64,000 bases of DNA from a bacterium (GTDB lineage: Bacteria; UBA8248), in the NCBI GenBank assembly GCA_965203325.1, contig OZ241875.1, positions 480,001 through 544,000 on the forward strand, given 5' to 3'. Position 1 is the first letter of the stretch. The number at the start of each line of letters is the position of its first letter. A program made the translations under genes and the position numbers. The notes below the pieces were generated by a model. The model saw nothing but the letters and a program-made list of their open reading frames with translations. It was not told the DNA's origin and searched no databases. Of the stretch, positions 27,138 to 60,491 are shown one piece after another.

Positions 27138-27184
27138 ATCAAAGCGCTCGATTCGCCATGTTCTCCTTTCCCACTAATAAATCA

Positions 27185-28606
27185 TCAGGCTGGAACCCCC
27201 TGCGTTTTGGACGCAAGTTCCATGACCTCGGAGATACTGCTCAGATTTTCCAGGTTCCTGACCCGATCGATGAGCAAATCACCCGTTTCCTTTTCGAGCA
27301 CAGGGGCCGTCATCACGCGGAATCTTTCGATTAACTCATCCCACGTCAACGGATTGCGTGAATCCCCCTTGGGATAATCCTGATGCGCTTCGAAAACGCC
27401 GCGATCAGTCTCGATTTCGACACGCGCTTGCCATTTGTCCGGAAATTCCTTTTCCATTTCCGCATCGCCGTAGCATTCAATTTTCTTGATAATGGAGGAG
27501 TAGACCTGAGAACGAAGGAAATCGTCGGCATACTCATCCAGCCCCGCAGCGCGCCTGAGAATCGCTACCGCCACGGCGTATTGAAGGCTGAACTGCGCAT
27601 CAACGATGTTTTGCGGATTCGTTTTCATATCATAGGGTTCGATGACCACCATGACGCTCGTCTCCGGAACCCGGACTTTCACCCGTCTGATTTCCTCAGG
27701 CTGAATATCATGTGCTCTGCAAACTTCGATTGTCGCGTCAATGGAAGCGTGGTTATAGCGACAACAAGCGTAGGGCTTTATGGCACTCTCGCAGATTTCC
27801 CAGTACTCACCAAAGTGCTCCACAACATACTCGGGCGTATAGTCATCACTATGGCCATGCAAAAATCCCGTTTTCCCGCCCAGAATATCTTCCGGCCCCG
27901 TATAACCCTCCTGGGCCAGATAGGCGGCGATGATACCGCTATGCGCCGCCCATCCCGGGTGAAACCTCTTCGTCCAGGCGCCGTTATCGAGATATTGCAT
28001 CGATCCCGCCGCCTGGCTGCCCGAGATGCCCATGGCATTGGAGGTGGCCTCGACCGAGAACCCCAGAAGCTTCGATGCCGTGATCGCGGAGGCGAAAGTG
28101 CCGCATGTGCCCGTGGGATGGAACCCGCGCTCATAGTGGCTCGTCGGGTTCACGGCATTTCCGATGCGATTGGTGACTTCATAACCCGCCACGATAGCGG
28201 CGATTACCCGCTTCGGATCAGGCTGATGCGCCTCGGCAACGGCTAACGTACTGGGCATGACGCTGACGGCAGGATGCAGGCTCGAGCGCGTAGTCACATC
28301 ATCCATTTCGGTAGCGTGGCTGACGCCGCCGTTCACCAGCGCGGCATGAGGGGCATCCGTTTTCAAAGCCGAACCGATAATCGTGCACGGCCCGCCCCGG
28401 GGAGCGCGCTTTTGGGCGAAATTATGAAATACCCGCGAACTGGCCGCTTCCACAGCTCTCAACGTAACGCCGAGGTGATCGAGCAGGAAATACTTTGCGC
28501 GCTCTCTGGCCTCATCGGGCAGAGAATCGTATGTAATGGCGTGAACGTGCTCGACGAGCATTCGGCTGATATTCATTCGAACATCTCCTTCAGTAGAAGC
28601 CGGCAA
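27185..28606 (-). CDS. MmgE/PrpD-family protein (paralog 1)
   Basis: ALVNGGVSHATEMDD, LHP, GFHPTG, KRFHPG, KPYACCRYNH, PKGD. Confidence 0.93.
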   Translation of the reverse strand: MPASTEGDVRMNISRMLVEHVHAITYDSLPDEARERAKYFLLDHLGVTLRAVEAASSRVFHNFAQKRAPRGGPCTIIGSALKTDAPHAALVNGGVSHATEMDDVTTRSSLHPAVSVMPSTLAVAEAHQPDPKRVIAAIVAGYEVTNRIGNAVNPTSHYERGFHPTGTCGTFASAITASKLLGFSVEATSNAMGISGSQAAGSMQYLDNGAWTKRFHPGWAAHSGIIAAYLAQEGYTGPEDILGGKTGFLHGHSDDYTPEYVVEHFGEYWEICESAIKPYACCRYNHASIDATIEVCRAHDIQPEEIRRVKVRVPETSVMVVIEPYDMKTNPQNIVDAQFSLQYAVAVAILRRAAGLDEYADDFLRSQVYSSIIKKIECYGDAEMEKEFPDKWQARVEIETDRGVFEAHQDYPKGDSRNPLTWDELIERFRVMTAPVLEKETGDLLIDRVRNLENLSSISEVMELASKTQGVPA

Positions 28607-31891: not shown

Positions 31892-32794
31892 ATGGATAGC
31901 ACATTTGATGCCGCTGAATTCGTAAAGGACATAGGGGTTCTTCTGGTGCATGCCTATGACGGGGCGCGAAAGGCGACGACACCGGGATTGGTGGGGAGTG
32001 CAATCGAAAAACCAGTGCGCAGGCTGCTGTCAAGCGTGTTGCCGAGAGGCTTATCCGTAGGAACAGGTTGTGTGGTGGACAGCTACGGTAAGACCAGCCG
32101 CCAGATGGACATCGTGTTGTACGAACGGGACATTTGTCCCGTCTACTGCGTAAACGATACACCTGAGGCGACTTACTTCCCCTGTGAGGGTGTTGTGGCG
32201 GTCGGGGAAGTCAAAGCAGCGATTAACGGCCCGAAACTTGACGACTCCTTCGACAAGATCGAGTCGGTCAAGGCGCTGAGGAGACACTGGGACGAGTTCC
32301 AACCGACTGTGCCTCGGGAAAAGAATTACCGGAACTATGGTATTGGGGCGACCATTGCAGGAATTAAATCAGCGAACGAAAACGAGGAGCGGGAGCAAAA
32401 TGAAATATTCGGGTTCGTGCTCACTGGCACATCGAAGCTGACGCCAGAAAGCCTCGTCAAAAGGTATGAGAACCGGGCTAAAACGAACGGAGCCTGGTCA
32501 TGCCCGAACGTGCTGGCAACGATGGACGGCACGTATGTGCGTCCGTTCGTCGCGGATGGAGAGGAACGTGCAATCTCCAAACGATCATTCCATACAGGCG
32601 ACCGTGTCGGGTGCTATGAAGGAACGGCGAGTTTCAACTATTTAATTGACGAGCTCTACGAAGCTTACCGGTACGGACATACAGCCCCACTGACAGCCTT
32701 TCGGCGGTATTTGGTAACACGAGAAGATAGCCAGCCAAGGACCATGCGAGCGCATGGAGTCATGCGAAGCCCCCTAGAAGGAGAACATGGGTGA
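31892..32794 (+). CDS. DUF6602-like protein (putative PD-(D/E)XK nuclease)
   Basis: G..E..VR..L...LP, GCVVDSYGKTSRQMDIVLYE, FPCEGVVAVGEVKA. Confidence 0.75.
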   Translation: MDSTFDAAEFVKDIGVLLVHAYDGARKATTPGLVGSAIEKPVRRLLSSVLPRGLSVGTGCVVDSYGKTSRQMDIVLYERDICPVYCVNDTPEATYFPCEGVVAVGEVKAAINGPKLDDSFDKIESVKALRRHWDEFQPTVPREKNYRNYGIGATIAGIKSANENEEREQNEIFGFVLTGTSKLTPESLVKRYENRAKTNGAWSCPNVLATMDGTYVRPFVADGEERAISKRSFHTGDRVGCYEGTASFNYLIDELYEAYRYGHTAPLTAFRRYLVTREDSQPRTMRAHGVMRSPLEGEHG

Positions 32795-33049: not shown

Positions 33050-34600
33050 TCAGTTTCCGGCTTCTGCGAACGCCTCGCGGTAAATCGTTTCGATTCGCGT
33101 CGCCTCGTCATCGGTCAGCGCGGCGAATTCCTTTTCCCGGCCCCGGCGGGAAAGGCTGCCGCCGTTGCGCCGCAGGAACCGGAACAGAAGGTCGGACAGC
33201 CTCTCCGGCATGTCGACCACCAGGTTCAGTTCCCTGCGAAATTCGTCGTAGCGCTCCAGGAAAGAGACTTCTTCCGGCAGGTCGTGCTCGACGGTCCGCT
33301 GCACGCATCCATACAGGAACTCGGTCTGCGGCGTCGCATCGAAGAACCGGTAGAAATCGTCCGTATCGTTCAAGACTTGGACGTTGCCGCTGTCCGTCGG
33401 CTCCCAGTCCACTGCCGGCAGCAGCCGCTGCGAATAGTCTTCGAGCGCGAGGCGGTAGTCGTCGACCCGCTCCAGAATGGCCGCCGATACGGGAAAGACG
33501 ACGCCGGGCGGGTTGAAACCGCGCCGGGCCAGCACATGGTGTACCAGATAGCGGTGGAGACGGCCGTTTCCGTCCTCGAAAGGGTGGATGTAGACGAAGC
33601 CGAACGCGAGGACCGACGCCGCCACGACCGGATCGAGCTGTTGGGCGGCCCCCCGGGCGAAATCGATCATGCCCTCCACGAGCCGGGCCAGACGGTCCGG
33701 CCGGGCGCTGATGTGGACCGGTATCGGCACCCCCGATTCGCGGTCCCGTTCGCCGACGAAACCGCCCTCGGCCCGCAGACCGAGGCGGACGAACCGGGCA
33801 TCGCCGATCACGATGCTTTGTAAGCGCAGCAGTTCGTCAAGATCGATCGCTTGCCCGCCGGCCTGGCCGATGGCGCGGCCCCACCGCTGGATGCGGTCGT
33901 GAGGCGGATGCTCGCCCTCGATGGCGAAGCTGGACCTGGAATCTTTCAGCAACAGGAAGGCCGCCGTGCGCGCCAGCAGATCGCGCGGGACCGCCGCAAC
34001 GGCATCCCCCGCGCGCGCGCCCAGGTCCATGGCGATGAAGCGCTCCAGCGCCTCGGTGCGGAACACCAGCGGACAGAATTCCGGCGTGCCGGGCAGGTTG
34101 TTCTTTACCCGGTGGCGCGGCGAGGTTTCCGCCTGGACGGCATATTGCAGATCCGGATCGACGACTTGCGCATAGGCACCGCGATCGGCGTTCGGCAGAT
34201 CGAGCCGCGTCCCACTCAGCCACTCATAGAGGAACCAGATACGCCTGGCGTAGGCGCCCGTCGGCTTGGCCTTGACGATGTTTTCGACGGGCGCGGGGCC
34301 GCTCGCGGCGAACAGGCGTTTCAGCACTGAGAGATGAAGCCCCTCGTGCTTCAGCGCGAAGGTGAGGTGGGCTCCTAAGCTCGCATCCGGCGCATAGCGG
34401 GGCGAGTAGATACGCCAGCCGCCATCCTCGATGCGCCTGTGTCGCTCGCCCGTGGCGCTCAATACGCGCGGCAGCGGCACGCGCAGCCCGTAGGCTTTGA
34501 TGAGCGCGGCGTATCCGGCCGGCGTGGCCCTCTCCGGGAGCCGCCGTTCCTGAAAAACGGTAACCGGGCCTGAAAAACGATTCTTTTCGGGGACGTTCAT
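33050..34600 (-). CDS. Fic-family AMPylase with N-terminal inhibitory motif (class II)
   Basis: HPFEDGNGRLHR catalytic motif; SSFAIEG alpha-inh motif. Confidence 0.92.
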   Translation of the reverse strand: MNVPEKNRFSGPVTVFQERRLPERATPAGYAALIKAYGLRVPLPRVLSATGERHRRIEDGGWRIYSPRYAPDASLGAHLTFALKHEGLHLSVLKRLFAASGPAPVENIVKAKPTGAYARRIWFLYEWLSGTRLDLPNADRGAYAQVVDPDLQYAVQAETSPRHRVKNNLPGTPEFCPLVFRTEALERFIAMDLGARAGDAVAAVPRDLLARTAAFLLLKDSRSSFAIEGEHPPHDRIQRWGRAIGQAGGQAIDLDELLRLQSIVIGDARFVRLGLRAEGGFVGERDRESGVPIPVHISARPDRLARLVEGMIDFARGAAQQLDPVVAASVLAFGFVYIHPFEDGNGRLHRYLVHHVLARRGFNPPGVVFPVSAAILERVDDYRLALEDYSQRLLPAVDWEPTDSGNVQVLNDTDDFYRFFDATPQTEFLYGCVQRTVEHDLPEEVSFLERYDEFRRELNLVVDMPERLSDLLFRFLRRNGGSLSRRGREKEFAALTDDEATRIETIYREAFAEAGN

Positions 34601-34933
34601 CTTAAAACGGTTCCTTGTCCGTGAAAAACGGTATTCTTCTATGAATATTGATAACACATACGGACTAAAATGAAAAACTATTATTTCTTGTGGTGAAATC
34701 ACACAGATATGTTCTGCTTGTATCGTCGCACCCCGGAAGACCCTGTCGCGCCTTGGCGACGGGCCGGGGTTCCTATCGTCCGGGATGTTTACCGATATGG
34801 TTTTGACGAGCGGTCGAGAACGGGGGTTCCGTCCGCACCAATGCGGCGCGGCGGATTGGAACCGTGCCGGGAAAAATGATAAGATAAAAATCTACGCGAG
34901 ATTCTATTTCCAGACCCACAAGGAAAACGGACG

Positions 34934-40642: not shown

Positions 40643-41995
40643 TCATTCATCAGTCGCATTTGCCTCCCCCACCGCATTGTCGAACACCACCACCGGATCA
40701 AAGTCCGCGATATCCACCCGGGGCAATGAAACGCCCGCGTAGGCACCCGCCGCAAGGAACTTCTCGAGCAGGTCCGCATCGCTCAGCGGCCTCTCCGGCA
40801 TCCCGCGCGCCACCCCGCAAAAGCCGGTTGCGGAGCGGCCGTCGCCGAGCGTCAGCGTGAGGCGAATGCACTCGGGGTATTTCGCGCGCATGGCGTCGGT
40901 GGAAAGGTCTGGGGCGCGCTTCATACTCACCCGCGCCATGAGGGCGGACTTCTCGGGGCCGATGGCGTCGGGCACCAGATCCTCGAAGCGCACCCGCCCG
41001 TGGACCGCGGCGCAGGCCAGGGCGTAAGGCAGGCTGAACTGCATCTCCTGCGGCGTGGCCGGGTCTGGAAAGACGAGACTCTCATAAACGAGCTTCGGCA
41101 CTTCGGCATGAACACCTGCGACCTCGTTCACGCTTGCGCCGAGTTCGGCCATGAGCGCGTTCATCTGCTCGATGGCCGCGAGCGCCGCCGAGCAGACAGG
41201 GCTTGTCTTGAACAAAAGGCCCGGCTCGCACAGGCGCCAGCGCTTTCCGATGGTTTCGAGTTCGGCTTCGAGGACCTCACCCCGGTTCAGCAGCTTCAGG
41301 TAGCCTCGCTCATTCTCGAACGCGTCTTCCGGCCCGGTAAGCCCGGCCCCGGCCGCCCGGGCGAACGTAACGGCCCGCCGCGCGGCCTCGCCGACCAGGA
41401 GGGGCTTGGCGTCCGTGCCGAGCACCGCCTTCCCACCGCCTGAAGCGGCTGCCGCCAGGCCGATAGCGCTCGTCATCGCGTCCTCATCGAGCCCGAGCAG
41501 GCATCCTGCGGCAACTGTCGCGCCCGTGAGGCCGAAAGTGGCCGTGCTCCACCAGCCGTCGAAATAGTGCGCATGCGTGCATATATCGGCGAGAACGTAC
41601 GCCACCTCCGAACCCGCGACGAAGGCGCGGCGAAGCGCGTCGGCATCAGAACCTGCTTCCTGCGCCAGGGCCATGGCGGCGGGCAGCACCACCGCCGAGC
41701 CGTGCATGATGCCCGTGTAGGAGGTATCGTCGAAGTCCCAGACGTGCGCCGCCGTTCCGTTCACCAGCGCAGCGGCTTCGGCGTCCGCCCGCCCGCCCGT
41801 CGCGAGCGTCGCCTTCCCCTCCCCGCGCAAAGTGGCCTGAGCCAGAGCGCGCACCGATGGATGTGCGCCCCCCGCGAGCATGACGCCCATGGTGTCGAGA
41901 ATGGCCCTGTCCGCAACTTTATTGACGTCTGAGTCGATGCGTTCCAGACCACAGGCGAACGCCGCGAATTGTCTGGCGATTGTCTGTGTACTCAT
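40643..41995 (-). CDS. MmgE/PrpD-family protein (paralog 2, divergent active-site loop)
   Basis: AALVNGTAAHVWDFDDT, MHGS, QFSLPYALA. Confidence 0.9.
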   Translation of the reverse strand: MSTQTIARQFAAFACGLERIDSDVNKVADRAILDTMGVMLAGGAHPSVRALAQATLRGEGKATLATGGRADAEAAALVNGTAAHVWDFDDTSYTGIMHGSAVVLPAAMALAQEAGSDADALRRAFVAGSEVAYVLADICTHAHYFDGWWSTATFGLTGATVAAGCLLGLDEDAMTSAIGLAAAASGGGKAVLGTDAKPLLVGEAARRAVTFARAAGAGLTGPEDAFENERGYLKLLNRGEVLEAELETIGKRWRLCEPGLLFKTSPVCSAALAAIEQMNALMAELGASVNEVAGVHAEVPKLVYESLVFPDPATPQEMQFSLPYALACAAVHGRVRFEDLVPDAIGPEKSALMARVSMKRAPDLSTDAMRAKYPECIRLTLTLGDGRSATGFCGVARGMPERPLSDADLLEKFLAAGAYAGVSLPRVDIADFDPVVVFDNAVGEANATDE

Positions 41996-42044
41996 GTGGC
42001 GGCGGCGCTGTTCCGGGGCGGGGGCAGATGCCCCTTCAACCACC

Positions 42045-42455
42045 CTACGGAGCGGGTGGCGCGGACGTGCGGCGGATGAGTTCCCTGAGCGACTCGCTCT
42101 GGACTTTGATCGCCTCCATGTTTTCCCGGTGTCGGCTTTCTATGGCCTCCATCGTTTCCCGGTGCTGGTCGCTTTGCGCCTCTTGCTGACGATTAAGCAC
42201 CGCCATGGTTTCTTGATGTTGCGCCATGGCTGCTTGATGTCGGCTGTCCAGCGCCTTCATGGTCTCTCGATGCTGCGCCATGTTTTCCCGGTGCTGGGCG
42301 TCGCGCTGACGCGATGCCTGGCGCATGATGTAGAGACCATACGCGATCAGGCTGCATTGCGCGGCGCCGACGAGAGCGGCGACCCATACGGCGGCTTGTT
42401 GCGCCGCGAGAGCGGCTTCTTGCAAGGCGAGGCTTGCGGTTTCGTATTCCGTCAT
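42045..42455 (-). CDS. Hypothetical single-TM coiled-coil protein with (Q/R)H(R/Q)E(N/T)M repeats
   Basis: Hydrophobic N-terminal helix followed by repeated QHRENM/QHRETM/RHRENM; GGAGAG RBS. Confidence 0.7.
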   Translation of the reverse strand: MTEYETASLALQEAALAAQQAAVWVAALVGAAQCSLIAYGLYIMRQASRQRDAQHRENMAQHRETMKALDSRHQAAMAQHQETMAVLNRQQEAQSDQHRETMEAIESRHRENMEAIKVQSESLRELIRRTSAPPAP

Positions 42456-42632
42456 TCTGTTCTCTCCATTATTTTCTCGTGGAGATAGCAAGCCAAGCCA
42501 GTTTCACCCAGAGCGCGAAAGATGTCAAAGCGAAGGTGCGTCGGCATTCCGCCCGTTCTGTTCACAGGAAAGTCATTCTTGGATGCAGACGCAACGAACC
42601 TGTGCAAGACGGTGAGGCGTGGTGATTTCCCC

Positions 42633-43949
42633 TTAATACTCGAACACTGTGGGGCCGTCCACTTTTTCGCAGAGCGCGGCGACGGCGGCGCGGGCGGCGC
42701 CGAGACGCCATTCGCGCTCGGCCTCGGGCGTCCGGGAGGGGTCGCCGAATGGATGATGGAAGTGGCCGGCGCGGTTGTTGACGATGCGGTTGACCCCGAT
42801 GTCGCGCGCCACATCGGGCAGACAGGTGACGATGACGGTGGGGATGCCCTCCCGCTCCAGGGCTCTCGCCAGCGCAGCCCCGCTGCGCGTGCCGGTGCCT
42901 CACGTGGCGGGGAGCACGACGCCCTCCACCCCGGTCTTTTTGAGCTCGGCGGCCCAGGCGCGGCCGATGCCGTCCATCTCGACGAAGGCGCCGCCGTTCC
43001 CGCAGGTGCTCAGGAAATCATCGTGGAGTTCGGCGATCTCGCCCTCGTCCGCAAGACGCCGGAAGGCGTCCACGGCGAGCATGCGGTCGGGCTCCTCGTT
43101 CACGAACACGGTGTTGAAGCCCCCGTGGATCGAGATGAACGTGCCGCCCGGAAGCGCGTCTTTCCCCTCGAATGAGTAGGTGGCCCAGTTCCCGTTCCTC
43201 GATCCGGAGAAGCGATCCGGGTTGCCGGGGGGGACCATGCCGCCTTCCGATACGATGGCGATGCGGGCTTTCTTGAGGTCGGCGACGGGTTCGGGGGGCG
43301 CTATCTCTTCGAGCGTCGGGACGTCGAGTTCGGTCCGGTAGGGTTCCCCCTTGATTTTCCTCAAAATCATGTCGACGGCGCGGCGTGAGGTCGGGAGTTC
43401 TGCGATTTCGTTGTAGCGGACCCCCCGAGGGAGGTAGCCCTCCTCGGCGGCGCTTCCAATCTTATCCCCACGGGCGAGCTTGCGTCCGAGCCGTGCGGCG
43501 GCTTCCAGGGCCTCCTCCATGCCGACGGCGGAATCGGCGGCGGGGACGGTGTGGACGCCGGTTCCGGCGGCGGGAAAACCCGGATTCTCGGGGTGCATGG
43601 CGGTGACGACGGGAATCCCGGCTTCCTCCACTGCGCGGCAGACGGCGGCGCAGGCGAGCCCGTAGCGCCCGGCGTTGAAGGCGGGTCCTGCAATAAGGAG
43701 ATCGGGCGCGTATTCCTTGATGAGCGAAAGCGCTTCTGCGGAGCATGTCTCTTCGTTTTCAGCGAAAAGGCCGTCCCCCGCGAAGACGGTACCGACGACT
43801 TCTGCGTCCTCACCCAGGATTTTATCGAGCAGTACACCGGGGCCGACGGGACCAGGCCGGGCGGACACGGGATGACCGCTCCTCTCCTCGCCCCCGACGC
43901 CCGCGAAGAACTGGTTCAAGTAGTGAACGACCCGAAGTGTAGCGCTCAT
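42633..43949 (-). CDS. grdB: Glycine/sarcosine/betaine reductase selenoprotein B family (Sec at UGA 42900-42902), 438 aa
   Basis: VVHYLNQFFAGVGGEE, AGPAFNAGRYG, IHGGF; homology continues past UGA: PAT-U-GTGTRSGAALARALEREGIPTV...GVNRIV...HPFGDP...VFEY*. Confidence 0.9.
42872..42888 (-). promoter_or_regulatory. SECIS-like hairpin of grdB
   Basis: mRNA GCGCAGC-GGG-GCUGCGC beginning 11 nt after the UGA, with G-rich apical loop. Confidence 0.65.
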
Positions 43950-44028
43950 GACTTGGCCTCCTGATATGGATTCATTCAAAACCCATTTTAGCACGCGCGG
44001 CGAACACCTGGTTGAACGACTCCCGCCC

Positions 44029-45312
44029 TCAATAATCCTTGCCCACCATGTTGTTGATGTCCTTCGCCCACTCGTTGGCGTAGTAGTCGCTGTCGATCAG
44101 GGTGAAGGCCTCGCGGGTGTTGACGCGCTTGCCGTTGTAGAACTCGACGACTTCCGAACCGATGACCCGCTCCACCGCGGGGGCGTCGATGCGCTCGCCC
44201 TGCATGCCCTTGGAGATGACGGCGTCGGCTTCGGGCACATGAAAGACGAGCGGGAACTCGCCCGAGCCCGGCCGGCCCACCTCGTAGATGATCGGAACGG
44301 CGCGCACGCCCATCTGTTCGAGCGCCTGGACGGTGAGCCAGTAATCCACCGTGGAGTTGCCGCCGCCCTCGAAGGCGAGGACCGCGCCATCCGCCTTCAA
44401 GAGGTTGGCGAGCTTGGCGACGTATTGCGCCGAGCGCTCCTTGAGCGCCTGGTTGTCGTGGTGGCCGCGCGTGATGATCACCCCTGCGAAATTGAGGTCC
44501 ACCCCGTGTCGGCGGTAGAGCTCGTAGATGAGCGGCATGTTGCAGTGCAGGTAGGTCGGCGCCTTCTGCTGCGTCTTGTAGTTCGCCCCCACCACCGCGC
44601 CGTCGAGCATCTCGTTGGGGTGAATGAGCGTGGGAAGCGAATCCCCCAGGTTCCTGCCGTACATGAACGTCTGCACCATGGACGCCTGGTGCATGACCTG
44701 ATCGACGAAGACGACCCGGGGGAGAGCGGGGTCGACCTCGCCGAGTTCGAAGGTTTCCAGGCGAACGGGTTCGAGTTCCGCCGTGCGCTCGGCCAGCCGG
44801 GACGCGATTTTCAGCGTCGCCAGGCGAACGGCGTCGTCGTGCGCTTCGTTCGATGCGCCCTCCAAAGGCTCGTAGCAGGCGACGAGGTTCGCGGTCTCTG
44901 AATTCGTGCAGTGCACGGTCCCCGGGCCGGACATGTCGATGATCCCTTCCCGGAAAGTCATGATGCCCGTCATGGGACCCAGGAAATAAGTGGAGCTGAT
45001 GACGCACATCCCGGCGAGCTTGTGGGTGCGGCCCTCTCCCGCTGTCTTCGCCGGGCCGAGAAATCCCGGAAATGCGCATGAGCGCCCGTTTACCTTGTAG
45101 ATAGGCTCGACCGCATCGAGGACGTTCGTGATGCGCACCGACTCGCCCGGTATGGCCGCGTGAAAGCTCACGTCCTTGAGACCGCCGTCTTCGAGCGCCA
45201 GTTCGCGGAGTTCATCGGCATCCACGGTGAGCGTTTCGTCTTTGTACGCGAAGCGCTTCCCGATGATGATTCTGGAAACGGGAAATATACCCATCTCGAG
45301 TCGCATGGACAT
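44029..45312 (-). CDS. Glycine/sarcosine/betaine reductase component B partner subunit (GrdE/GrdG/GrdI family)
   Basis: MRLEMG, PGESVRITNVLDAVEP, GEGRTHKL, IIDMSGPG, HPNEMLDGAVV, PTYLH, EGGGN. Confidence 0.9.
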   Translation of the reverse strand: MSMRLEMGIFPVSRIIIGKRFAYKDETLTVDADELRELALEDGGLKDVSFHAAIPGESVRITNVLDAVEPIYKVNGRSCAFPGFLGPAKTAGEGRTHKLAGMCVISSTYFLGPMTGIMTFREGIIDMSGPGTVHCTNSETANLVACYEPLEGASNEAHDDAVRLATLKIASRLAERTAELEPVRLETFELGEVDPALPRVVFVDQVMHQASMVQTFMYGRNLGDSLPTLIHPNEMLDGAVVGANYKTQQKAPTYLHCNMPLIYELYRRHGVDLNFAGVIITRGHHDNQALKERSAQYVAKLANLLKADGAVLAFEGGGNSTVDYWLTVQALEQMGVRAVPIIYEVGRPGSGEFPLVFHVPEADAVISKGMQGERIDAPAVERVIGSEVVEFYNGKRVNTREAFTLIDSDYYANEWAKDINNMVGKDY

Positions 45313-45321
45313 CGTTGCCCC

Positions 45322-45774
45322 CTACCCTGCCGCGCGCATATCGGCGAGATCGCTTTCTATCTGCTCCAGATCGAGCACCATCTCCATCATGAGAAGTTTA
45401 TCGGCATAAACGTCCTCGGGAACCTGTGCCCGCACAGTTTCTTCCAGGATATGGAAAACGGGGAGTCCCAACGGGACTCCCGCCAGGGGCCCGGCCCAGC
45501 TCGGGTCCCCGGTGGTCAGCGTTTCGACAGCGAGCCGAAGGCCTTCACCGGGCATTCCCAACACCACCATCAGGTTCTCCGGGCCGATTTCATCCGCTAT
45601 CGACTTGATGGCGGCCTGGTTCTCCAGGTCCATGGCGCCCGCGGAGGTTCAGACGAAACACTCCGTCTTCTGAAATACGACCTCCGCCCCCGCCGCTTCG
45701 AGGCACTCGGCGATCAGCGGGCCGGGAACACCGTCGCGCTCGCCCAGCGCGATCACCTTCTTTCCATCGAACAT
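45322..45774 (-). CDS. grdA: Glycine/sarcosine/betaine reductase selenoprotein A (Sec at UGA 45649-45651), 150 aa
   Basis: [36 protein letters not shown]...[21 protein letters not shown]; the ORF track shows only the post-UGA part. Confidence 0.93.
45608..45633 (-). promoter_or_regulatory. SECIS-like hairpin of grdA
   Basis: mRNA AUGG-A-CCUGG-AGAA-CCAGG-CCG-CCAU downstream of the UGA. Confidence 0.55.
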
Positions 45775-45806
45775 GAATACCCTCCACTCCCCAAAAAACG
45801 AACGAA

Positions 45807-47225
45807 TCACGCCTCTATCAGCACCGAAGCCCCGTCGGCCTGCCGGGACATCCGGCCCAGAAACAAGCTTCCTTTGGCGAGGATCATTGTACTCTCAAGG
45901 CGGCCCGCCCGCATCCTCTCGAGAGCGTGTCCGAGAAAGGGAATCCCAGCGGGAATGTGTCCCTGCGTGGGCGCGAAACCGGGCATACCGTGCGTTTCGA
46001 TGAAACCCGGTATCTCCTCGCGGGCGATCTCCCCACCCATGACCGCCAGGGCGGCCAGCATCCTGTAATTCGCAGCCGCCACGTCTCCCGCTCCCGACGG
46101 CAGCATGATCTCCGGATTGTGCAGTTCGACGGCGTACTTATCGACGCTGGTCAGCCTGCGCCCGGCGCGGGCCAGCGGGTCGCGCACGAGCGCTTCGGCC
46201 AATCCTTGCGGGGTGGAGGGCCTGCCCGCCGCGTGGCGTCCGGCGATCTCGAGATTCACACGGGGGCCATCGTCCGGATTTTTCGTGAGAAAAAACGCTA
46301 CTCCGCCCAACACGTCTTCCAGGACGGGCACCCCCTTTCCCAGATGGAAATACGCCTTCATCCCGAGCTTCGCCATCGAACCGCCGCCCACGACGACGGC
46401 GTTGCCGACGACGCCCGCCTCTATCAGGGCCGCCGCGTGCACGAGCGCATAGACCGGCGCCGCGCAGAAGGACTTCACGTCGACGCCGGCGGCATTCACA
46501 CAGCCCGCCATCTCGGCAATCGTCTTTGCGAGATTGCCGCCGCCTCGATTGTAGCGATCCCCGACCGCCTCTTCCGAGCAGCTGATGACGTACTCGATCG
46601 CTTCGGGAGCGATGTTCTCCTGTACGAGAAGGCGGCTGAGCGCGTATGCGCCGCTGGCCTTGGCCGAGAGGTTTTCGAGAAGAATGCGGGCGTCCAGGGA
46701 CTCATCCGTTTCATGATCGCGACGGGCGCACCCGATGAGTCCTCCATCCTGAGATAGCGGCAGGGCCTCGCCTCCCTCGATGCGCCGGGAAATGTCTTCT
46801 TTTCCGTATTCCTTTGAGGGTTTTTCTTTCGTGAGAAGAGCGGAGGCGGCCTCTGAATCCACTGCGCCCGGAACACGGCGCTCCTTATCGAGCAGTATCA
46901 ACCCGAACTGATCCGCAGCTTCGAGTAAGGAATAGAAAGCATCCTGCGGGAGGATTTCCCCAAAATGGCCCTCAGGCGAAGCGCCTGCGAGTGGATTCTC
47001 GTACCACGGAGCCGGGATTTCCCCTAAATTCTCCGGCGGCAGGTTGCCGATGAACACCTGATTCGGCGGGTAGCCGACCATTTCGTCAAAAGTGCGCAGG
47101 CTGGCGAATACGTCGCCCGGTGTTTGTCCCCTCCCTAAAGCCTTGCGCCAGGGCTTCGAGCCGTAGCGAACCAGATCGGGAACGTGAACGAGAACGTTCG
47201 CCGCCGCGCGCAGATACGCCGTCAT
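45807..47225 (-). CDS. grdC: Glycine/sarcosine/betaine reductase component C beta subunit
   Basis: [86 protein letters not shown]. Confidence 0.93.
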
Positions 47226-47279: not shown

Positions 47280-48065
47280 CTATCCCGCGGTGTAGCCGCC
47301 GTCGGCATAGAGAATGTGGCCGGTGTAGAAGTCGGACGCGCGCGATGCGAGGAACAGGAGCGGCCCGGCCAGATCCTCGGGTTCGCCCAACCGCCCTTTC
47401 GGGACCCGGCTCACGATGTTCTCGCGGGTCTTCACCGCCTTGGGCGCGTCGGTGAACATCCAGTCCGTGAGCACCGAGCGGAAGACGGTCGGTCCGACCG
47501 CGTTGACGGTGATCCCCGTCGGCCCCAGTTCGCAGGCGAGCGCCTTCGTGATCCCGTCGACCGCCGCTTTCGACGCGCAATAGGCGGTGTAGCCCGCCGG
47601 GTGGCCGAGAATCCCGCGCGTAGAGGAGACGAGGACGATCTTGCCGCCGTCTCCCTGCGCCTTCATCCGCCGCGTCGCGGCGCGCGCCAGAAGCCACGAC
47701 TGCGTGACGTTGGCGTCCATGACGTCGGCGAACGCATCGGGCGCCATCTCCTCGATCATCCCTACCCTGTTGATCCCCGACGCCACGACCAGTATGTCCA
47801 GGCGGCCATAGGCCTCGACGGCCTTCTCCACCATGGCGTCGGCGATAGCTTCGGTTTCGGGGCGCGCGTTCACCACTTCGACCGACGCTCCCAGCTCCCG
47901 GCACTCGCCCGCAACGGCTTCGAGCACGTCGGAAGTGCCGGCGGTCAGCGTGAGGCGGCACCCGGCCCCGGCCAGCGTCCGCGCGGCGACCGCCCCGAAA
48001 GCGCCCGAAGCGCCGGTGATGAGCGCGGATTTTCCGCTTACGTCAAAAAGTTCAGAGGGTTTCAT
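47280..48065 (-). CDS. Short-chain dehydrogenase/reductase (gluconate 5-dehydrogenase-like)
   Basis: LFDVSGKSALITGASGAFG, YCASK, TGHILYADGG. Confidence 0.9.
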   Translation of the reverse strand: MKPSELFDVSGKSALITGASGAFGAVAARTLAGAGCRLTLTAGTSDVLEAVAGECRELGASVEVVNARPETEAIADAMVEKAVEAYGRLDILVVASGINRVGMIEEMAPDAFADVMDANVTQSWLLARAATRRMKAQGDGGKIVLVSSTRGILGHPAGYTAYCASKAAVDGITKALACELGPTGITVNAVGPTVFRSVLTDWMFTDAPKAVKTRENIVSRVPKGRLGEPEDLAGPLLFLASRASDFYTGHILYADGGYTAG

Positions 48066-48251
48066 AATATGGCGTCCGAATGGGGGATCACGACGGGCGT
48101 CCCGCAGGCGTGAGAGAAGATTCCGTATGCCCCATGCTAGGTATCGAGAGGGCGGTATGTCAAGAATGCGGGGGCAAACTCGATCGATGAGGGGCTGTTG
48201 AAAAAGTCCTCTTTTCAGGGGGTGGAGGGGCATCCCTCTCGACTGAAAAGC

Positions 48252-50252: not shown

Positions 50253-51164
50253 ATGCCGAAGATAAAAATCACCGGCGAGGAACACCATGCGCATCACGAC
50301 GGCGCCGAACTGTTCCTGTGGAGGAAGCGAAACGAGGGCCCCGAAAAACCGGGGGACGCGGTGCTCCTCGTGCACGGCTCGTCCATGGCCTCCACGCCCA
50401 CGTTCGACCTCCAGGTGAAATCGCGGCCCGGATACTCCCTGATGGACCATCTCGCCGGGCGCGGCTACGACGTCTGGTGCGTGGACTGCGAGGGCTACGG
50501 GAGGTCCACCAAATCGAGGCGGGTCTCCTGCGGCATCGAGCGCGGCGCCAGGGACGTTCTGGCGGCGGCGAACGTGATCCGGCGCGTCAGCAGAAAGAGC
50601 GCGCTTCACCTCTACGGCATCTCCTCCGGCGCCCTGCGCGCCGCCCTGTTCGCGCAGAAAAACCCCCGGCGCGTGAAGCGGCTCATCCTCGACGCCTTCG
50701 TCTGGACGGGCGAAGGAAGCCCGACCTTGAAAGAAAGGAGCAAGCGATTCCGTGGCGTGGTCTCCACGTCGAGAAGGCCCGTGAACGCGGCGTTCATCGA
50801 GAGCATCTTCACGCGCGATCATCCCGGCACGGCCTACCGTGACGTCATCCGTGAATACGCGAAGGCCATCTGCGCGCTCGACGACACGATCCCGAACGGC
50901 ACCTACATCGACATGTGCGAACGGCTGCCGCTCGTGAACCCCAAAAAAATCACCGCGCCCGTGATGATCGCGCGCGGCGAGTTCGACGGCATCGCCCATC
51001 TCGACGATCTGGTGGAATTCTTCCGGCTGCTGCCGAATCCGGACAAGCAGTTCGTGATGATGCCCGGCATCGCCCACGCGAGCCTGCAGGAGAAAAACCA
51101 CGGCATCGCCTTTCATCTCATCGAGCGCTTCTTCAGCCAGCCCGCGCCCGTTTACAGGGGCTGA
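50253..51164 (+). CDS. Alpha/beta-fold hydrolase
   Basis: LLVHGS, GYGRS, YGISSG, GEFDGIA, GIAH. Confidence 0.88.
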   Translation: MPKIKITGEEHHAHHDGAELFLWRKRNEGPEKPGDAVLLVHGSSMASTPTFDLQVKSRPGYSLMDHLAGRGYDVWCVDCEGYGRSTKSRRVSCGIERGARDVLAAANVIRRVSRKSALHLYGISSGALRAALFAQKNPRRVKRLILDAFVWTGEGSPTLKERSKRFRGVVSTSRRPVNAAFIESIFTRDHPGTAYRDVIREYAKAICALDDTIPNGTYIDMCERLPLVNPKKITAPVMIARGEFDGIAHLDDLVEFFRLLPNPDKQFVMMPGIAHASLQEKNHGIAFHLIERFFSQPAPVYRG

Positions 51165-51333
51165 AGCCGCCCGGCGGGGGGGACGCCGGGGGTAGCCTCA
51201 TTCCGCCCCCGCTTGATTCGCGCGGGGCAATGGGGCTAGATTAGGGCCATCGATTCGTACAAATGGTAGGGGCGAGAACGTCCTGTATCCGAAAGCGAAT
51301 AAATTCTTATCCCTCAAGCAGAAAGGCGCATCC

Positions 51334-52155
51334 ATGGAAACCCAGGACTGGTATTCCGTCAACAATTTCGCACCGGGCAGCTATCAAATCACCGAGGGCG
51401 GCAGGTTCAACATGCTCCTCCTCGAAGGAGACGAGAAGGCGGTCGCCATCGACGGCGGCATCGGGGTCGCGAATTTGCGGAAACTCTACGAGAGCATCAC
51501 GGACAAGCCCATCGACTTCGTCCTCACCCACACGCACTGGGACCACCTGGGCGCGGCATCGCAGTGGGACAGCGTAGGCGTGCACCCCGTCGGCAAGGAC
51601 CTTCTGGCGAATGATTTCTCGAAACTCGAGCAGGCCTTCGTGAACATGTGGAAGAACAACGGGAACACCTTCCCCGACTGGTTCGACGAGGAGGCCTACG
51701 GCATCAAGCCCGCCACGTTCGGCTGGACGCTCGAAGAGGGCGACACCTTCGACTTGGGGAACAGGAAGTTCCACGTCTACGAGACGCCCGGCCATTCGCC
51801 CTGCAGCATCTCGCTCTATGACGAGCGCGAGAAGATTCTCGTCTCGGGCGACCTGATCCGCTGCGAGGAATACCTCTTCCTGCAGGTGCCCACGGCGGTG
51901 CTCTCCGACTATGCGCCCTCGCTGCGCAAGCTCGAGAAGGTCGCCGCAGAGAACGAGGTGCGCTGGATCACCTCGGGCCACACCGACCCCTACCCGGACC
52001 CCTCCATCATCGGTGAGCTGGCGCAGAACATGGAGGAACTCGAGGCCGGCGCGCACGATCCGCCCGCCAAGGTGGACGGCGGCGCGTGGGGCGAAGTGGA
52101 CGAGTACGTGTTCCCCCGCGTCAAGGTGTGGATTCAGGATCACGCGAGAAAGTAA
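51334..52155 (+). CDS. MBL-fold metallo-hydrolase (paralog 1)
   Basis: THTHWDHLG, TPGHSP, SGD, SGH. Confidence 0.92.
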   Translation: METQDWYSVNNFAPGSYQITEGGRFNMLLLEGDEKAVAIDGGIGVANLRKLYESITDKPIDFVLTHTHWDHLGAASQWDSVGVHPVGKDLLANDFSKLEQAFVNMWKNNGNTFPDWFDEEAYGIKPATFGWTLEEGDTFDLGNRKFHVYETPGHSPCSISLYDEREKILVSGDLIRCEEYLFLQVPTAVLSDYAPSLRKLEKVAAENEVRWITSGHTDPYPDPSIIGELAQNMEELEAGAHDPPAKVDGGAWGEVDEYVFPRVKVWIQDHARK

Positions 52156-52170
52156 TCCGGGAAAAACGCC

Positions 52171-52986
52171 ATGGACACGCAAGACTGGTATGAGGTCATC
52201 GAGTTCGCACCGGGCACCTATCAGATATCGGAAGCCGGGCGGTGGAACATGTTCCTCCTCGTGGGCGAGGAGAAGGCCCTCTCGCTCGACGGCGGGATCG
52301 GTGTGGGCAGCGTGCGCAGGTTGTGTGAGTCGATAACCGACCTGCCCGTGGAACACGTCCTGACCCACACGCACTGGGATCACGTGGGCGCGATCCACGA
52401 ATGGGAGTCGGTGGGCGTTCATCCCAACGGAAAAGACAAGCTGGCGAACGACTACTCGGCGGGCTGCCGTGATTTCGTCCAGACTTGGGACGGAATACCC
52501 TTTCCCGAGGGGTTTGAGCCTGAGACCTTCACCATACCGCCCGGAAAGTTCGGCTGGGCGGTGCAGGAAGGCGACGTCATCGACCTCGGCGGCAGGAAAA
52601 TCCACGTATACGACACGCCGGGGCATTCGCCGTGCAGCATCTCGCTCTATGACGAGAAAGAGCGCGTCCTGATCTCGGGCGATCTGGTGAAGCCCGGCCA
52701 GCCGCTCTTCATCCAGGTGCCCACGGCCGTCCTGTCCGAATACGGGTCCTCGATGCGCAGGCTCCAGAGGATCGCAGAAGATAACGACGCCCGGTTCGTC
52801 TGCTCGGGCCATACCGACCCGTGCGAGGACATCGCCGTCATCGGGCGGATGGCGCAGTTCGTGGAGGAGGTGGCCGCAGGCGCGCATGAGCCGCCCGCCA
52901 AGGTGGAAGCCGGGAAATGGGGCGTGGTCGATGAATACGCCTCCGGCGACATGAAGGTCTGGACGAACGACAACGCGAGAAAATAG
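52171..52986 (+). CDS. MBL-fold metallo-hydrolase (paralog 2)
   Basis: THTHWDHVG, TPGHSP, SGD, SGH; colinear with paralog 1. Confidence 0.92.
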   Translation: MDTQDWYEVIEFAPGTYQISEAGRWNMFLLVGEEKALSLDGGIGVGSVRRLCESITDLPVEHVLTHTHWDHVGAIHEWESVGVHPNGKDKLANDYSAGCRDFVQTWDGIPFPEGFEPETFTIPPGKFGWAVQEGDVIDLGGRKIHVYDTPGHSPCSISLYDEKERVLISGDLVKPGQPLFIQVPTAVLSEYGSSMRRLQRIAEDNDARFVCSGHTDPCEDIAVIGRMAQFVEEVAAGAHEPPAKVEAGKWGVVDEYASGDMKVWTNDNARK

Positions 52987-52996
52987 CGGAGGATAT

Positions 52997-54949
52997 TTGC
53001 AAGTGAACGCTTCTGACATCATTTGGCGGCCGGATGAGGATTTTCTGACGAACAGCCATGTCGCCAGGCTGATGAAAAAGATCGGCATCTCCGATTACCG
53101 CGAATTCCTCAAGTGGTCTATCGAGGACATCCGGCGCTTCTGGGAGGTCGTTTTAGATGACATGGGGCTTGCATGGTACCGGCCCTACGACGAATTGCTC
53201 GACCTGAGCGGCGGCTTCCCGTGGGCGAAGTGGTTCATCGGCGGCGAGACGAACCTCGTCCTGAACTGCATCGACCGCCACGTAGAGGGCGGGCGCCGCG
53301 ATCAGACCGCCCTCGTATGGGAGAGCGACGGGGGCGAGGTGCGGAAGTTCACCTACGCCGAATTCTCGGCGGAAGTGTCGCGTCTTGCGAACGCCATGCG
53401 CGGGATGGGTCTCAAGCCGGGCGACGTGGCGGGCGTGTTCCTCCCCATGGTGCCAGAAGCCGCCATCGTCATGTACGCGTGCTTCAAGACGGGGGTGGCC
53501 GTGCTGCCCGTCTTCTCGGGCTTCGGCCCCGAGGGTCTGGCAGAGCGCCTCATCCACGCGGAAGCACGCATCCTCTTCACAGTGGACGGCGCCGTCCGCA
53601 GGGGCAAGAAGGTGCCGCTCAAGGGCACGGCGGACGCGGCTTTAGAGCGCGGCACGAAGGTGGAAAAGGTGGTCGTCCTCACGCGCTCGGGCGATGAAGT
53701 TCCCATGAAGGCAGGGCGCGACGTCACCTGGGATGATTTCGTAGCGGGGCAATCGACGGAAGCCGAGACGGAGCGCCTCCCCGCCGACGCCGTCTCGATG
53801 ATCATGTACACCTCGGGCACGACCGGAAAGCCCAAGGGCACCGTCTACACCCACGCGGGGCTGATGAGCGGCCCGGGGCGCGAACTCAAGTATTGCCTCG
53901 ACATGCGCGACGGCGATACGGTCTTCTGGGTGACGGACTTCGGCTGGGTCATGGCGCCTTACGAACTCGTGGGCTCTCACTTCAACGGCCACGCTTGCCA
54001 GCTCTATGAGAGCGTGCCGAACCACCCGGCGCCCGATCGCTTATGGCAAATCATCGCGAGGAACGGGGTCACCCACCTGGGGCTGTCCCCCACGGCGGTG
54101 CGCGTACTGATCAGCGCGGGCGATGAGTGGGTGGAGAAACACGATCTCTCCTGCCTGCGCGTGCTCGCCTCCACCGGCGAACCCTGGGACCCGGAATCCT
54201 ACATGTGGTATTTCGAAAAGGTGGGCGGCGGCAGGTGCCCCATCATGAACATATCGGGCGGCACCGAGATCGGCGCCTGCCTCCTGCAACCCCTGCCCGT
54301 CATGGACCTCTCCCCCTGCACGCTGGGCGCGCCCGCCATGGGCACTGACGCCGACGTGTTCGGCGAGGACGCCAGGCCGATCCGCGGCGAGGTGGGCCAC
54401 CTCGTGCTCAAACAGCCCATCCCCTCCCTCACCAACGGTTTCTGGAAGGAGCCGGACCGCTACCTCGAGACCTATTTCTCGCGCTGGGAGGGCGTGTGGT
54501 ACCACGGCGACTGGGCCAAGGTGGACGAGCAGGGGCTCTGGTATCTCTACGGGCGCTCGGACGACACCATCAAGGTATCGGGCAAGCGCGTGGGGCCGAA
54601 CGAAATCGAGTCCGAACTCATCAAGCACCCCGGCGTCATCGAGGCCGCCGTCGTGGGCACGCCCCACCCGGTGAAGGGGGAAGGCCTCACCTGCTTCGTC
54701 GTCATGCACGAAACTTATGAGCCTACCGACGCCCTGCGCGAGGAGCTGAAAGATCAGGCGGTGGAGTATCTCGGAAAGAGCCTGCGGCCCGATGAGGTCC
54801 GCTTCGTCAAGGCCCTGCCCAAGACGCGCTCGGCGAAAATCGTGCGGGGCGCCATCAAGAAGGTCTACCTGGGCGAACAGGTGGACCACATGGACCTGAA
54901 CTCGCTCGAAAACCCCGCGCACCTCGACGCCATCCGGGAAGCGGTGTGA
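52997..54949 (+). CDS. AMP-forming acyl-CoA synthetase (acetate/acetoacetate-CoA ligase-like), paralog 1
   Basis: YTSGTTGKPKG, STGEPW, SGGTE, WYHGD, GRSDD, LPKTRSAK. Confidence 0.92.
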   Translation: MQVNASDIIWRPDEDFLTNSHVARLMKKIGISDYREFLKWSIEDIRRFWEVVLDDMGLAWYRPYDELLDLSGGFPWAKWFIGGETNLVLNCIDRHVEGGRRDQTALVWESDGGEVRKFTYAEFSAEVSRLANAMRGMGLKPGDVAGVFLPMVPEAAIVMYACFKTGVAVLPVFSGFGPEGLAERLIHAEARILFTVDGAVRRGKKVPLKGTADAALERGTKVEKVVVLTRSGDEVPMKAGRDVTWDDFVAGQSTEAETERLPADAVSMIMYTSGTTGKPKGTVYTHAGLMSGPGRELKYCLDMRDGDTVFWVTDFGWVMAPYELVGSHFNGHACQLYESVPNHPAPDRLWQIIARNGVTHLGLSPTAVRVLISAGDEWVEKHDLSCLRVLASTGEPWDPESYMWYFEKVGGGRCPIMNISGGTEIGACLLQPLPVMDLSPCTLGAPAMGTDADVFGEDARPIRGEVGHLVLKQPIPSLTNGFWKEPDRYLETYFSRWEGVWYHGDWAKVDEQGLWYLYGRSDDTIKVSGKRVGPNEIESELIKHPGVIEAAVVGTPHPVKGEGLTCFVVMHETYEPTDALREELKDQAVEYLGKSLRPDEVRFVKALPKTRSAKIVRGAIKKVYLGEQVDHMDLNSLENPAHLDAIREAV

Positions 54950-54986
54950 GGAAAGGGACAATAGACATCCCTAAGGAGACGGTTCA

Positions 54987-55847
54987 GTGCAATACGTGAA
55001 ACCAGAAAGAATTTGGCTGAAGAATCCTCATACCGAACTGAACGAAAAATGGGTGCAGGATAGAATCTCCGAAGACCCATCCATATTAGGGCTGGGCGAT
55101 CTTGTTTTGATGGATACGGAGCGAAAACAGCCCAGTGCAGGCCGTTTAGACCTACTGCTTCAAGATTCGAAAACAGACCACAGATACGAAGTCGAAATCC
55201 AGCTTGGGGCAACCGACGAATCGCACATCATCCGCACCATCGAGTATTGGGACATTGAGCGGAAGCGTTATCCGCAATACGAGCATTCCGCGGTTCTGGT
55301 CGCTGAGGACGTCACTAGTCGTTTCTTGAATGTCGTTTCACTGTTCAACGGCGCGATTCCCCTGATCGCGATTCAGTTTCAAGCCTTGAAGATCGGCGAT
55401 TACATTTCATTGGTTTTTACTACTGTAATGGATGTACTAGTGCGAGGAGACGAGGACGAAGAACCTCAAACACCCGCAGATCGTACATATTGGGAGCAGC
55501 GAGGTTCTAAAGCCACTGTTTCACTTGCCGATCAACTAATAGGAATGATTAGAGGGTTCGCTCCAGATGTGGAACCAAAATACAACAAGTATTACATTGG
55601 CCTCTCCCAAAATGGTCGAGTAAACAACTTTATTGCCCTCATCCCCCAGAAAAATCGCCTCCGCCTCAGGATTTTCTGGGAGAGAACACAAGAAACCGAC
55701 GAACGACTCGAACAACAAACAGATATTGCCTTTGCATATAACAGACACAGACGTGCTTATGATATTGATCTCAATAAGGACGATATCGAAAAACGAGGCG
55801 ATGCATTAAAAGAACTCATACACCTGGCTTATAAGCGCAAAACGTAA
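54987..55847 (+). CDS. NucS/PD-(D/E)XK-like nuclease domain with DUF5655-like C-terminus
   Basis: EKWVQD, GRLDLLL, YEVEIQLGATDESHIIRTIEYW; KYNKYYIG C-terminal domain; lower GC than neighbours. Confidence 0.75.
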   Translation: MQYVKPERIWLKNPHTELNEKWVQDRISEDPSILGLGDLVLMDTERKQPSAGRLDLLLQDSKTDHRYEVEIQLGATDESHIIRTIEYWDIERKRYPQYEHSAVLVAEDVTSRFLNVVSLFNGAIPLIAIQFQALKIGDYISLVFTTVMDVLVRGDEDEEPQTPADRTYWEQRGSKATVSLADQLIGMIRGFAPDVEPKYNKYYIGLSQNGRVNNFIALIPQKNRLRLRIFWERTQETDERLEQQTDIAFAYNRHRRAYDIDLNKDDIEKRGDALKELIHLAYKRKT

Positions 55848-55867
55848 TAACCACCCGAGGAAAAGCC

Positions 55868-60377: not shown

Positions 60378-60491
60378 GAACCCCGAACCCCCCGCATGGA
60401 TAGAATGAGGAGAAAGCCCTCGAGAACCCCCCGGCGCCCCGCGAAACCACTCACCAGAGGGCTGTTGAAAAATCCCCGAGGAGAGAGGAGC

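Follow-up and report, generated by a model that had tools for sequence, protein, structure and literature searches.

The window analysed here is a 64,000-nucleotide stretch of contig OZ241875.1 (GenBank assembly GCA_965203325.1, positions 480,001 to 544,000) affiliated with the Nitrospinota, and its subject is a gene for a homolog of the selenoprotein GrdB. The gene keeps an in-frame UGA codon for selenocysteine (Sec) and a hairpin of the selenocysteine insertion sequence (SECIS) type, and it has lost both cysteines of the UxxCxxC motif (U, Sec). The adjacent gene encodes a GrdE-like partner that has lost the Asn-Cys site of pyruvoyl-dependent proproteins. With a probability of about two in three, the GrdB-like protein serves a glycine-reductase-type complex as its functional, Sec-decoding B subunit, encoded in a grdC-grdA-grdE′-grdB′ cluster, and its remodelled active site would work by direct attack of the selenolate on the substrate. 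What is new is a conserved B selenoprotein that retains Sec, lacks both motif cysteines and is paired with a pyruvoyl-less partner, in a phylum that has not been linked to such chemistry. An earlier note on this DNA had singled out the gene for its altered motif; the more informative change is in the GrdE-like partner, outside the coordinates which that note covered.

The GrdB-family coding sequence runs from 43949 to 42633. These end points agree with the earlier note and belong to the minus strand; the plus-strand reading of the same coordinates gives no sensible protein. The gene starts with an ATG (N-terminus M-S-A-T-L-R-V-V-H-Y) that has AGGAGG 8 nt on its 5′ side, and it continues for 438 codons to a TAA. 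Codon 350 is a TGA in the context L-P-A-T-U-G-T-G-T-R-S-G-A and is followed by 88 sense codons (351-438). Pfam GRDB (PF07355) matched residues 5-349 with 400.8 bits against a cutoff of 22. NCBIfam TIGR01918, the glycine/betaine/sarcosine/D-proline reductase selenoprotein B subfamily, matched residues 6-437 with 415.4 bits against a cutoff of 65.45. Both curated cutoffs of the GrdB family profiles are therefore passed, and the second match spans the TGA; together with the translation, it bears out the claim that 88 GrdB-homologous codons follow the UGA in frame. TGA is the ordinary stop codon in 17 of the 31 Pfam-supported open reading frames (ORFs) of the window, which points to site-specific recoding at codon 350 and not to an altered genetic code.

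A scan of species-representative genomes was used to collect relatives, and the best 80 of 595 confirmed relatives were kept as loci L001-L080, so that the motif counts below describe a sample. The site was not covered in three of the 80 loci; the remaining 77 related rows and the window make up 78 sequences. The TGA and the open frame beyond it are kept in all 77 related rows. L001-L005 are 79-95% identical to the window protein and match it across all 438 residues. They share with it the U-G-T-G-T-R-S motif and the TGA in an open frame (5/5), and the stop codon position is identical in all six sequences of this clade. Codons 351-438 had a ratio of nonsynonymous to synonymous substitution rates (dN/dS; Nei-Gojobori, 15 pairs) of 0.03-0.18, and codons 1-349 had one of 0.10-0.27. 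These ratios indicate that the segment after the UGA is under purifying selection, the absence of which the earlier note had named as grounds for abandoning its proposal.

Public protein sets give a different picture of the gene's length. The nearest database proteins come from Nitrospinae/Nitrospinota metagenome-assembled genomes (MAGs), and most of them end at residue 349 in the public gene calls. Protein searches returned no Cys-for-Sec orthologs and no full-length or read-through database copies of the window clade, and residues 345-438 as a query gave no match at E ≤ 0.001 among 3844 candidates. The 99%-coverage matches fetched in the whole-protein search (15 of the best 120) were only canonical GrdB proteins with W or G at the UGA. 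Full-length canonical GrdB entries with the Sec codon rendered as W or G (P0053-P0074, P0119) derive from gene calls under another genetic code, and high-GC relatives such as the window clade are present only as 349-residue truncations.

The hairpin begins 11 nt past the TGA, as the earlier note described. GCGCAGC (42888-42882) and GCTGCGC (42878-42872) form a perfect 7-bp stem around a GGG loop (42881-42879), and in L003 one C-to-U change leaves a G-U pair. Taken alone, the hairpin is not significant by folding energy (−22.8 versus a shuffle mean of −22.0 kcal/mol, z = −0.29, with 64 of 200 dinucleotide shuffles folding as well). The third positions of codons 351-362 are not unusually conserved (5 of 12 variable; 25% of 12-codon windows as low or lower), and within the 17 nt of the hairpin 1 of 6 third positions varies versus 57% gene-wide, for which a binomial estimate of ~0.06 is not decisive. 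Rfam models found nothing at the gathering threshold on the whole window, and positions 42500-46000 searched at E ≤ 10 gave two chance matches.

Comparison across the family was made with a gapless alignment of 54 nt from the TGA in the 78 sequences (76 distinct rows). The same seven column pairs are paired in 91.5% of cells over the 76 distinct rows, compared with 19-69% in slid controls, and the helix covariation of 0.152 exceeds the 0.053 of shuffles, with 0 of 500 reaching the observed value. By this alignment, the hairpin is in the register of the family-wide SECIS stem, and the gene has both the in-frame UGA at the conserved position and the SECIS hairpin of the GrdB family. At pair 19-27, 70 rows have U-A, and A-U is confined to the six window-clade rows, where the Cys-to-Ser codon change (UGC to AGC) is matched by GCA to GCU in the opposite Ala codon of the stem. 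This compensatory change indicates that the SECIS stem stayed intact when the cysteine was replaced; as one evolutionary event in a coding region, it is supportive and not proof. At the level of sequence comparison, these data indicate that UGA350 is decoded as Sec with the aid of a conserved hairpin and show that the whole 438-residue protein is under selection; the nearby GrdA gene, with an in-frame TGA of its own, likewise favours Sec decoding.

Gly353 (42893-42891) and Ser356 (42884-42882) occupy the positions of the two motif cysteines. The UxxCxxC motif is described for GrdB, GrdF and GrdH and was proposed to protect Sec from oxidation (Wagner 1999 as cited in an excerpt of PMC6778437); it is repeated in the accessible part of a review (PMC13188914). 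The window protein departs from this trait of the characterised enzymes with U-G-T-G-T-R-S. Among the 77 related rows, 67 have UxxCxxC, four have UxxGxxC (L007, L010, L025, L059), one has UxxDxxC (L042) and five have UxxGxxS, all of the last being close relatives of the window. The earlier note's observation that Sec is kept with both cysteines replaced thus holds for the window and for 5/5 close relatives. Its canonical context, T-S-T-U-G-T-C-T-R-C, is found in the retrieved loci and fits the UxxCxxC of PMC6778437 (excerpt), but the first cysteine is not universal. The UxxCxxC rows include L013, which passes the cutoff of the glycine-reductase GrdB equivalog (751.6 versus 602.2 bits), and L074_b, a near miss for GrdH on a partial match (748.8 versus 775 bits). 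UxxGxxS, which the earlier note would have had to find common in characterised enzymes to give up its case, occurs in none of the rows that resemble characterised GrdB, GrdF or GrdH.

A quick IQ-TREE search (LG+G4, 78 rows) places the six UxxGxxS rows in one clade with a Shimodaira-Hasegawa-like approximate likelihood ratio (SH-aLRT) support of 100 and a stem of 0.86. This clade lies outside a 68-row clade (SH-aLRT 98) that holds every UxxCxxC row and L042. L059 is its sister (98, with a long-branch warning), and L007, L010 and L025 branch near the base of the tree, also outside the 68-row clade. The UxxGxxC proteins resemble the window protein in the change of the first Cys to Gly and in branching outside the canonical clade, and the partners of L007, L025 and L059 share Tyr at the cleavage site with the window partner (the L010 contig is too short). 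They differ in keeping the second Cys and are 44-48% identical to the window protein. On this distribution, the first motif Cys is dispensable in several deep lineages, and among the sampled rows only the window clade has lost the second.

The GrdE-like partner was compared with the partners in 76 loci. The cleavage site in the window and L001-L005 reads D-G-A-V-V-G-A-N-Y-K-T-Q-Q-K, compared with D-G-A-I-x-S-G-N-C-V-S-A-C-D-K-N in the canonical partners of the retrieved loci. Tyr245 takes the place of the processing Cys, assigned according to the available part of PMC10838667, which cites Bednarski 2001, and the second Cys of the site is also gone. The window partner consequently lacks the Asn-Cys site of the pyruvoyl-dependent GrdE and GrdG proproteins. 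The partner of L042, the UxxDxxC row, keeps N-C. The partner of the GrdH-like L074_b has Phe at the site, which is consistent with an unprocessed GrdI of betaine reductase. With the window GrdE-like protein as query, HMMER found 1089 relatives among 1.84 billion cluster representatives; among the best 150 of these clusters (50% identity), those nearest to the query, 142 have no Cys at the site and 8 have one (N-C in 6). An aromatic residue stands there in 95 of the 150 (Tyr 67, Phe 15, His 10, Trp 3). Since 142 of the 150 nearest clusters lack the Cys, the window pair is a new variant in a pyruvoyl-less branch that is large and has no characterised members.

None of the models for named enzymes recognises the pair at its cutoff. 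The GrdB-like protein scores 396.6 bits against TIGR01917, the GrdB equivalog (cutoff 602.2), 422 against NF040794, sarcosine reductase GrdF (cutoff 800), and 352.3 against NF040795, betaine reductase GrdH (cutoff 775). The partner scores 258 bits with the GrdG model (cutoff 780) and 140 with the equivalog for the fluoroacetate reductase subunit FarE (cutoff 675).

The canonical reduction of glycine and sarcosine needs the pyruvoyl carbonyl, which polarises the C-N bond through a Schiff base (PMC10838667, excerpt). Asn-Tyr in place of Asn-Cys implies that there is no pyruvoyl group and no Schiff-base chemistry, and a partner without this site indicates a substrate with its own leaving group. 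In the mechanism proposed here, no amine substrate would be held as a Schiff base. The selenolate would instead attack the α-carbon of a substrate of the X-CH2-COO(−) type directly and expel a good leaving group, by analogy with direct attack in betaine reductase GrdH/GrdI, where it is the accepted mechanism, and in the fluoroacetate reductase FarEB, where it has been proposed (PMC10838667, excerpt). The carboxymethyl-selenoether formed in this way would be handed to the Sec of GrdA (C-x-x-U) and from there to GrdC. Loss of the CxxC pair would belong to a wider, coordinated remodelling that the active site underwent in a deep non-canonical branch, and would not be an isolated change in selenol protection. 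Speculatively, the aromatic residue that stands in place of the processing Cys (Tyr in the window, Phe in the row resembling GrdI) may contact the leaving group. Judged from the two sequences, the window enzyme most likely reduces a different kind of substrate from the glycine and sarcosine reductases. The earlier note had suggested a different redox-protection strategy or mechanism, which these results support only in part; the loss of the Asn-Cys site in the partner argues for a difference in substrate activation and against one in selenol protection alone, and a relocated thiol is compatible with it.

Cys316 is a candidate for such a thiol. It lies in a conserved T-x-G-N loop (S-T-C-G-N-G-G), is present in every clade member, and has a Cys counterpart in 67 of the 120 nearest N-terminal homologs; the flanking T315 and G317 are invariant in the alignment used. 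A second GrdB-like group (a subset of P0076-P0122, for example P0107 and P0114), ~49-51% identical, also has Cys at position 316, in a V-T-C-G-N-H-G context, and its records are named as Candidatus Hydrogenedentes/Rokubacteria MAGs. An AlphaFold2 model of the GrdB-like protein (62-row alignment) had a predicted local distance difference test score (pLDDT) of 91.5 and a predicted template modelling score (pTM) of 0.58. In the model, Cys316 is two residues past strand 307-314, Sec350 is three residues past the next strand (343-347) and caps a helix, and Cys375 ends the strand that follows 343-347. Neighbouring parallel strands of a beta-alpha-beta unit usually have their end loops close to each other, at one sheet edge. 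The modelled beta-loop-alpha pattern would accordingly place Cys316 near Sec350, and a relocated protective thiol, Cys316 or Cys375, is possible. A sequence search of the PDB gave two spurious immunoglobulin matches near E 0.01, and Foldseek comparison of the model with the PDB gave only generic two-domain Rossmann/periplasmic-binding-protein-like matches with template modelling scores ≤ 0.20, and no solved relative.

A relocated thiol is one form of the explanation that the enzyme still performs glycine or sarcosine reductase chemistry with its selenol protected in another way (for example by Cys316 or Cys375) or in need of no protection. The occurrence of Cys316 in place of the canonical Val or Thr, the modelled strand order that suggests a shared sheet edge for the Cys316 and Sec350 loops, and the fact that, of the named models, those for GrdF and GrdB give the highest scores (422 and 397 bits) all fit this explanation. 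It is nevertheless unlikely, because the partner lacks the Asn-Cys pyruvoyl site needed for both reductions (PMC10838667, excerpt) and every named-enzyme cutoff is missed widely; a relocated thiol could equally coexist with direct selenolate attack. A divergent betaine reductase of the GrdH/GrdI type, with glycine betaine or a closely related onium compound as its substrate, would explain both an unprocessed partner whose Cys has given way to an aromatic residue, like the GrdI-like partner of L074_b, and the dimethylglycine-dehydrogenase-like and DmdA/GcvT-like genes found within 6 kb in the window and L001. Against this, the GrdH score (352 versus 775 bits) is lower than the GrdF and GrdB scores, the near-GrdH L074_b has retained UxxCxxC and falls in the canonical clade and not with the window, and L002-L005 have none of these methyl-amine genes in their flanks. 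This explanation is a slightly poorer prospect than the preceding one. The chance that the gene is decaying, or that the TGA is a true stop giving a 349-residue protein, is very small. The truncated public gene calls, a hairpin that alone is no better than shuffles and a genome paper that judged a B component without UxxCxxC a likely pseudogene (PMC6778437, excerpt) would agree with it. It is contradicted by the low post-UGA dN/dS with the shared stop position in 6/6 sequences, by GrdB homology that runs on to residue 437, by the compensatory change in the SECIS stem and by the absence of a start codon close after the TGA, the first downstream ORF starting at 42812.

Direct selenolate attack at a remodelled active site is thus the preferred explanation, and several points weigh against it. 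Pyruvoyl loss alone does not explain the CxxC loss, since GrdH keeps UxxCxxC though GrdI has no Cys. The loss of the pyruvoyl group is read from one alignment column, and another carbonyl cofactor may be present in the GrdE-like partner; formylglycine is speculated about in PMC10838667 (excerpt). The absence of local GrdD and thioredoxin genes leaves the downstream half of the pathway locally incomplete, and that half may differ. The tree came from a quick search with long-branch warnings, the motif counts are a sample (best 80 of 595), and the 150 GrdE-like clusters are biased to the query's own branch, although, with clusters formed at 50% identity, that branch is extensive and varied even so. 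Both the mechanism and Sec incorporation are argued from sequence. A broader proposal, which is tentative and falls well short of even odds, is that the window clade represents the Nitrospinota in a very extensive radiation of Grd-type selenoenzymes that lack pyruvoyl and have hardly been described. Such enzymes would use Sec without a motif thiol, possibly with Cys316, and GrdC, apparently with no adjacent GrdD or thioredoxin genes, on a new substrate class.

The closest published case is FarB/FarE, the proposed fluoroacetate reductase of Cloacibacillus porcorum MFA1 (PMC10838667, excerpt). FarB, like the window protein, is a Sec-containing GrdB homolog without the CxxC cysteines, a likeness that concerns the missing cysteines and not the exact FarB motif, and FarE, like the window partner, is a GrdE homolog without processing cysteines, the pair feeding GrdA/GrdC. 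The same double signature is therefore already published in FarEB, and the idea is less new than the earlier note supposed. The two pairs are not orthologous, as the FarE score indicates, and the better-scoring models are GrdG and GrdF, far below cutoff. Unlike FarEB, the window pair shares its cluster with grdC and grdA, and it comes from another phylum. No match to the families of the FarEB operon, radical-SAM (farC) or oxalate/formate antiporter (farA), was found among 38 window ORFs scanned; an EamA transporter gene lies upstream. Betaine reductase GrdH/GrdI resembles the window pair in its unprocessed, pyruvoyl-less partner with an aromatic residue at the site (L074_b partner) and, by analogy, in the attack of Sec on a substrate with its own leaving group; it differs in keeping UxxCxxC (L074_b; PMC6778437, excerpt) and in the low GrdH score. 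With GrdB/GrdE and GrdF/GrdG the window shares the two-subunit architecture, the Sec position, the SECIS register and the GrdA and GrdC partners, and it differs in the loss of both motif cysteines and the Asn-Cys site and in having no adjacent grdD or trx. A literature search found nothing that links glycine reductase or GrdB with Nitrospinota or Nitrospina, and for GrdB-like and GrdE-like proteins it found only the FarEB papers and one unrelated preprint. The available parts of two papers mention grdH homologues in marine metagenomes and contain nothing on motifs (PMC9321204, PMC5537630).

A selection-maintained copy that has lost both cysteines and kept its SECIS makes it unsafe to equate a missing UxxCxxC with a pseudogene, the rule applied in PMC6778437 (excerpt), and the window clade is a natural experiment on the role of the two cysteines. 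The dominance of pyruvoyl-less partners in the nearest sequence space (142/150) suggests that the characterised glycine, sarcosine and betaine enzymes are perhaps a small corner of a larger family. Its members may be selenium-dependent reductases, some of them in lineages (Nitrospinota, for example) not noted for Stickland-type metabolism. If the proposed radiation were real, it would mean new reductive carboxymethyl chemistry outside the classical amino-acid-fermenting anaerobes.

Table 1. Positions of the cluster genes and of the elements within the grdB-like gene (window coordinates).
Feature	Position	Strand	Support
GrdB-family selenoprotein B-like coding sequence, one UGA read through	42633..43949	−	Pfam GRDB, TIGR01918, full-length matches in L001-L005
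Sec codon 350, in-frame TGA	42900..42902	−	TGA at aligned position in 77/77 related rows
Codons 351-356, G-T-G-T-R-S, Gly353 and Ser356 in place of the UxxCxxC Cys pair	42882..42899	−	identical in L001-L005
SECIS-type hairpin, 7-bp stem and GGG loop	42872..42888	−	kept in 6/6 clade sequences, family-wide covariation
Cys316, candidate relocated thiol	43002..43004	−	V or T in canonical rows
GrdE-like partner, 427 residues, Asn244-Tyr245 (codon 44580-44578) at Asn-Cys self-cleavage position	44029..45312	−	Pfam Gly_reductase 355.4 bits
GrdA selenoprotein A, own in-frame TGA (45651-45649), C-F-V-U motif	45322..45774	−	Pfam GRDA and NCBIfam reduct_selen_A match part after TGA
GrdC, component C beta subunit	45807..47225	−	NCBIfam NF040746 564.1 bits versus cutoff 450
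Short-chain dehydrogenase, upstream of grdC	47280..48233	−	Pfam adh_short; also in L001, L003
148-residue protein, no known family, directly downstream of grdB-like gene	42045..42491	−	homologs in L001, L002
MmgE/PrpD-family protein, last gene of same-strand cluster	40643..42043	−	Pfam; also in L001, L003

The cluster supplies two further components of a glycine reductase complex, GrdA with its C-x-x-U motif, encoded two genes upstream of the grdB-like gene, and GrdC (Table 1). GrdD, thioredoxin and thioredoxin reductase genes were absent from the 64-kb window in tblastn searches with the GrdD and TrxB of L013 and in the scan of 38 ORFs. In 48 of the 80 loci, no more than 6 kb separates GrdD from grdB. 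Ten loci were treated as non-canonical (L001-L005, L007, L010, L025, L042, L059); GrdD is near grdB in 48/70 of the loci not flagged in this way and in 0/10 of the non-canonical loci, even where GrdC is present. TrxB is nearby only at L007 and L042 among the non-canonical loci.

The flanking genes (the methyl-amine pair, the short-chain dehydrogenase and the MmgE/PrpD-family gene) give only weak hints of the substrate. The 148-residue neighbour had no Pfam or NCBIfam match, and its best Atlas score of 0.82 was uninformative. A second MmgE/PrpD-family gene is found at 27185-28606, 13 kb from the copy at the end of the cluster, and a PrpD-like domain is fused to a fumarate-reductase-type flavoprotein near L025 (6762-8654), an unrelated non-canonical locus. 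In L001, a 1.8-kb insert (4197-6000) separates the grdE-like and grdB-like genes, and the corresponding gap in the window is ~80 bp. The insert carries two back-to-back ORFs (4535-5278, 247 residues; 5281-5760, 159 residues) that are absent from the window, and the same gap is also longer in L003 and L004.

Elsewhere in the window, a ~16-kb block at 12000-28000 has a G+C content of 47-52%, compared with 60-68% in the remainder, and few confident ORFs; it may be acquired DNA. Just past the block are a DUF6602 gene (31892-32794) and a Fic-domain gene (33050-34891). The regions at 50253-57814 and 58564-63710 carry an alpha/beta hydrolase, two metallo-beta-lactamase-fold genes, a tripartite ATP-independent periplasmic (TRAP) transporter (DctPQM) and two TauE/SafE exporters, and two tandem acetyl-CoA-synthetase-like genes are located at 52955-54949 and 55868-57814.

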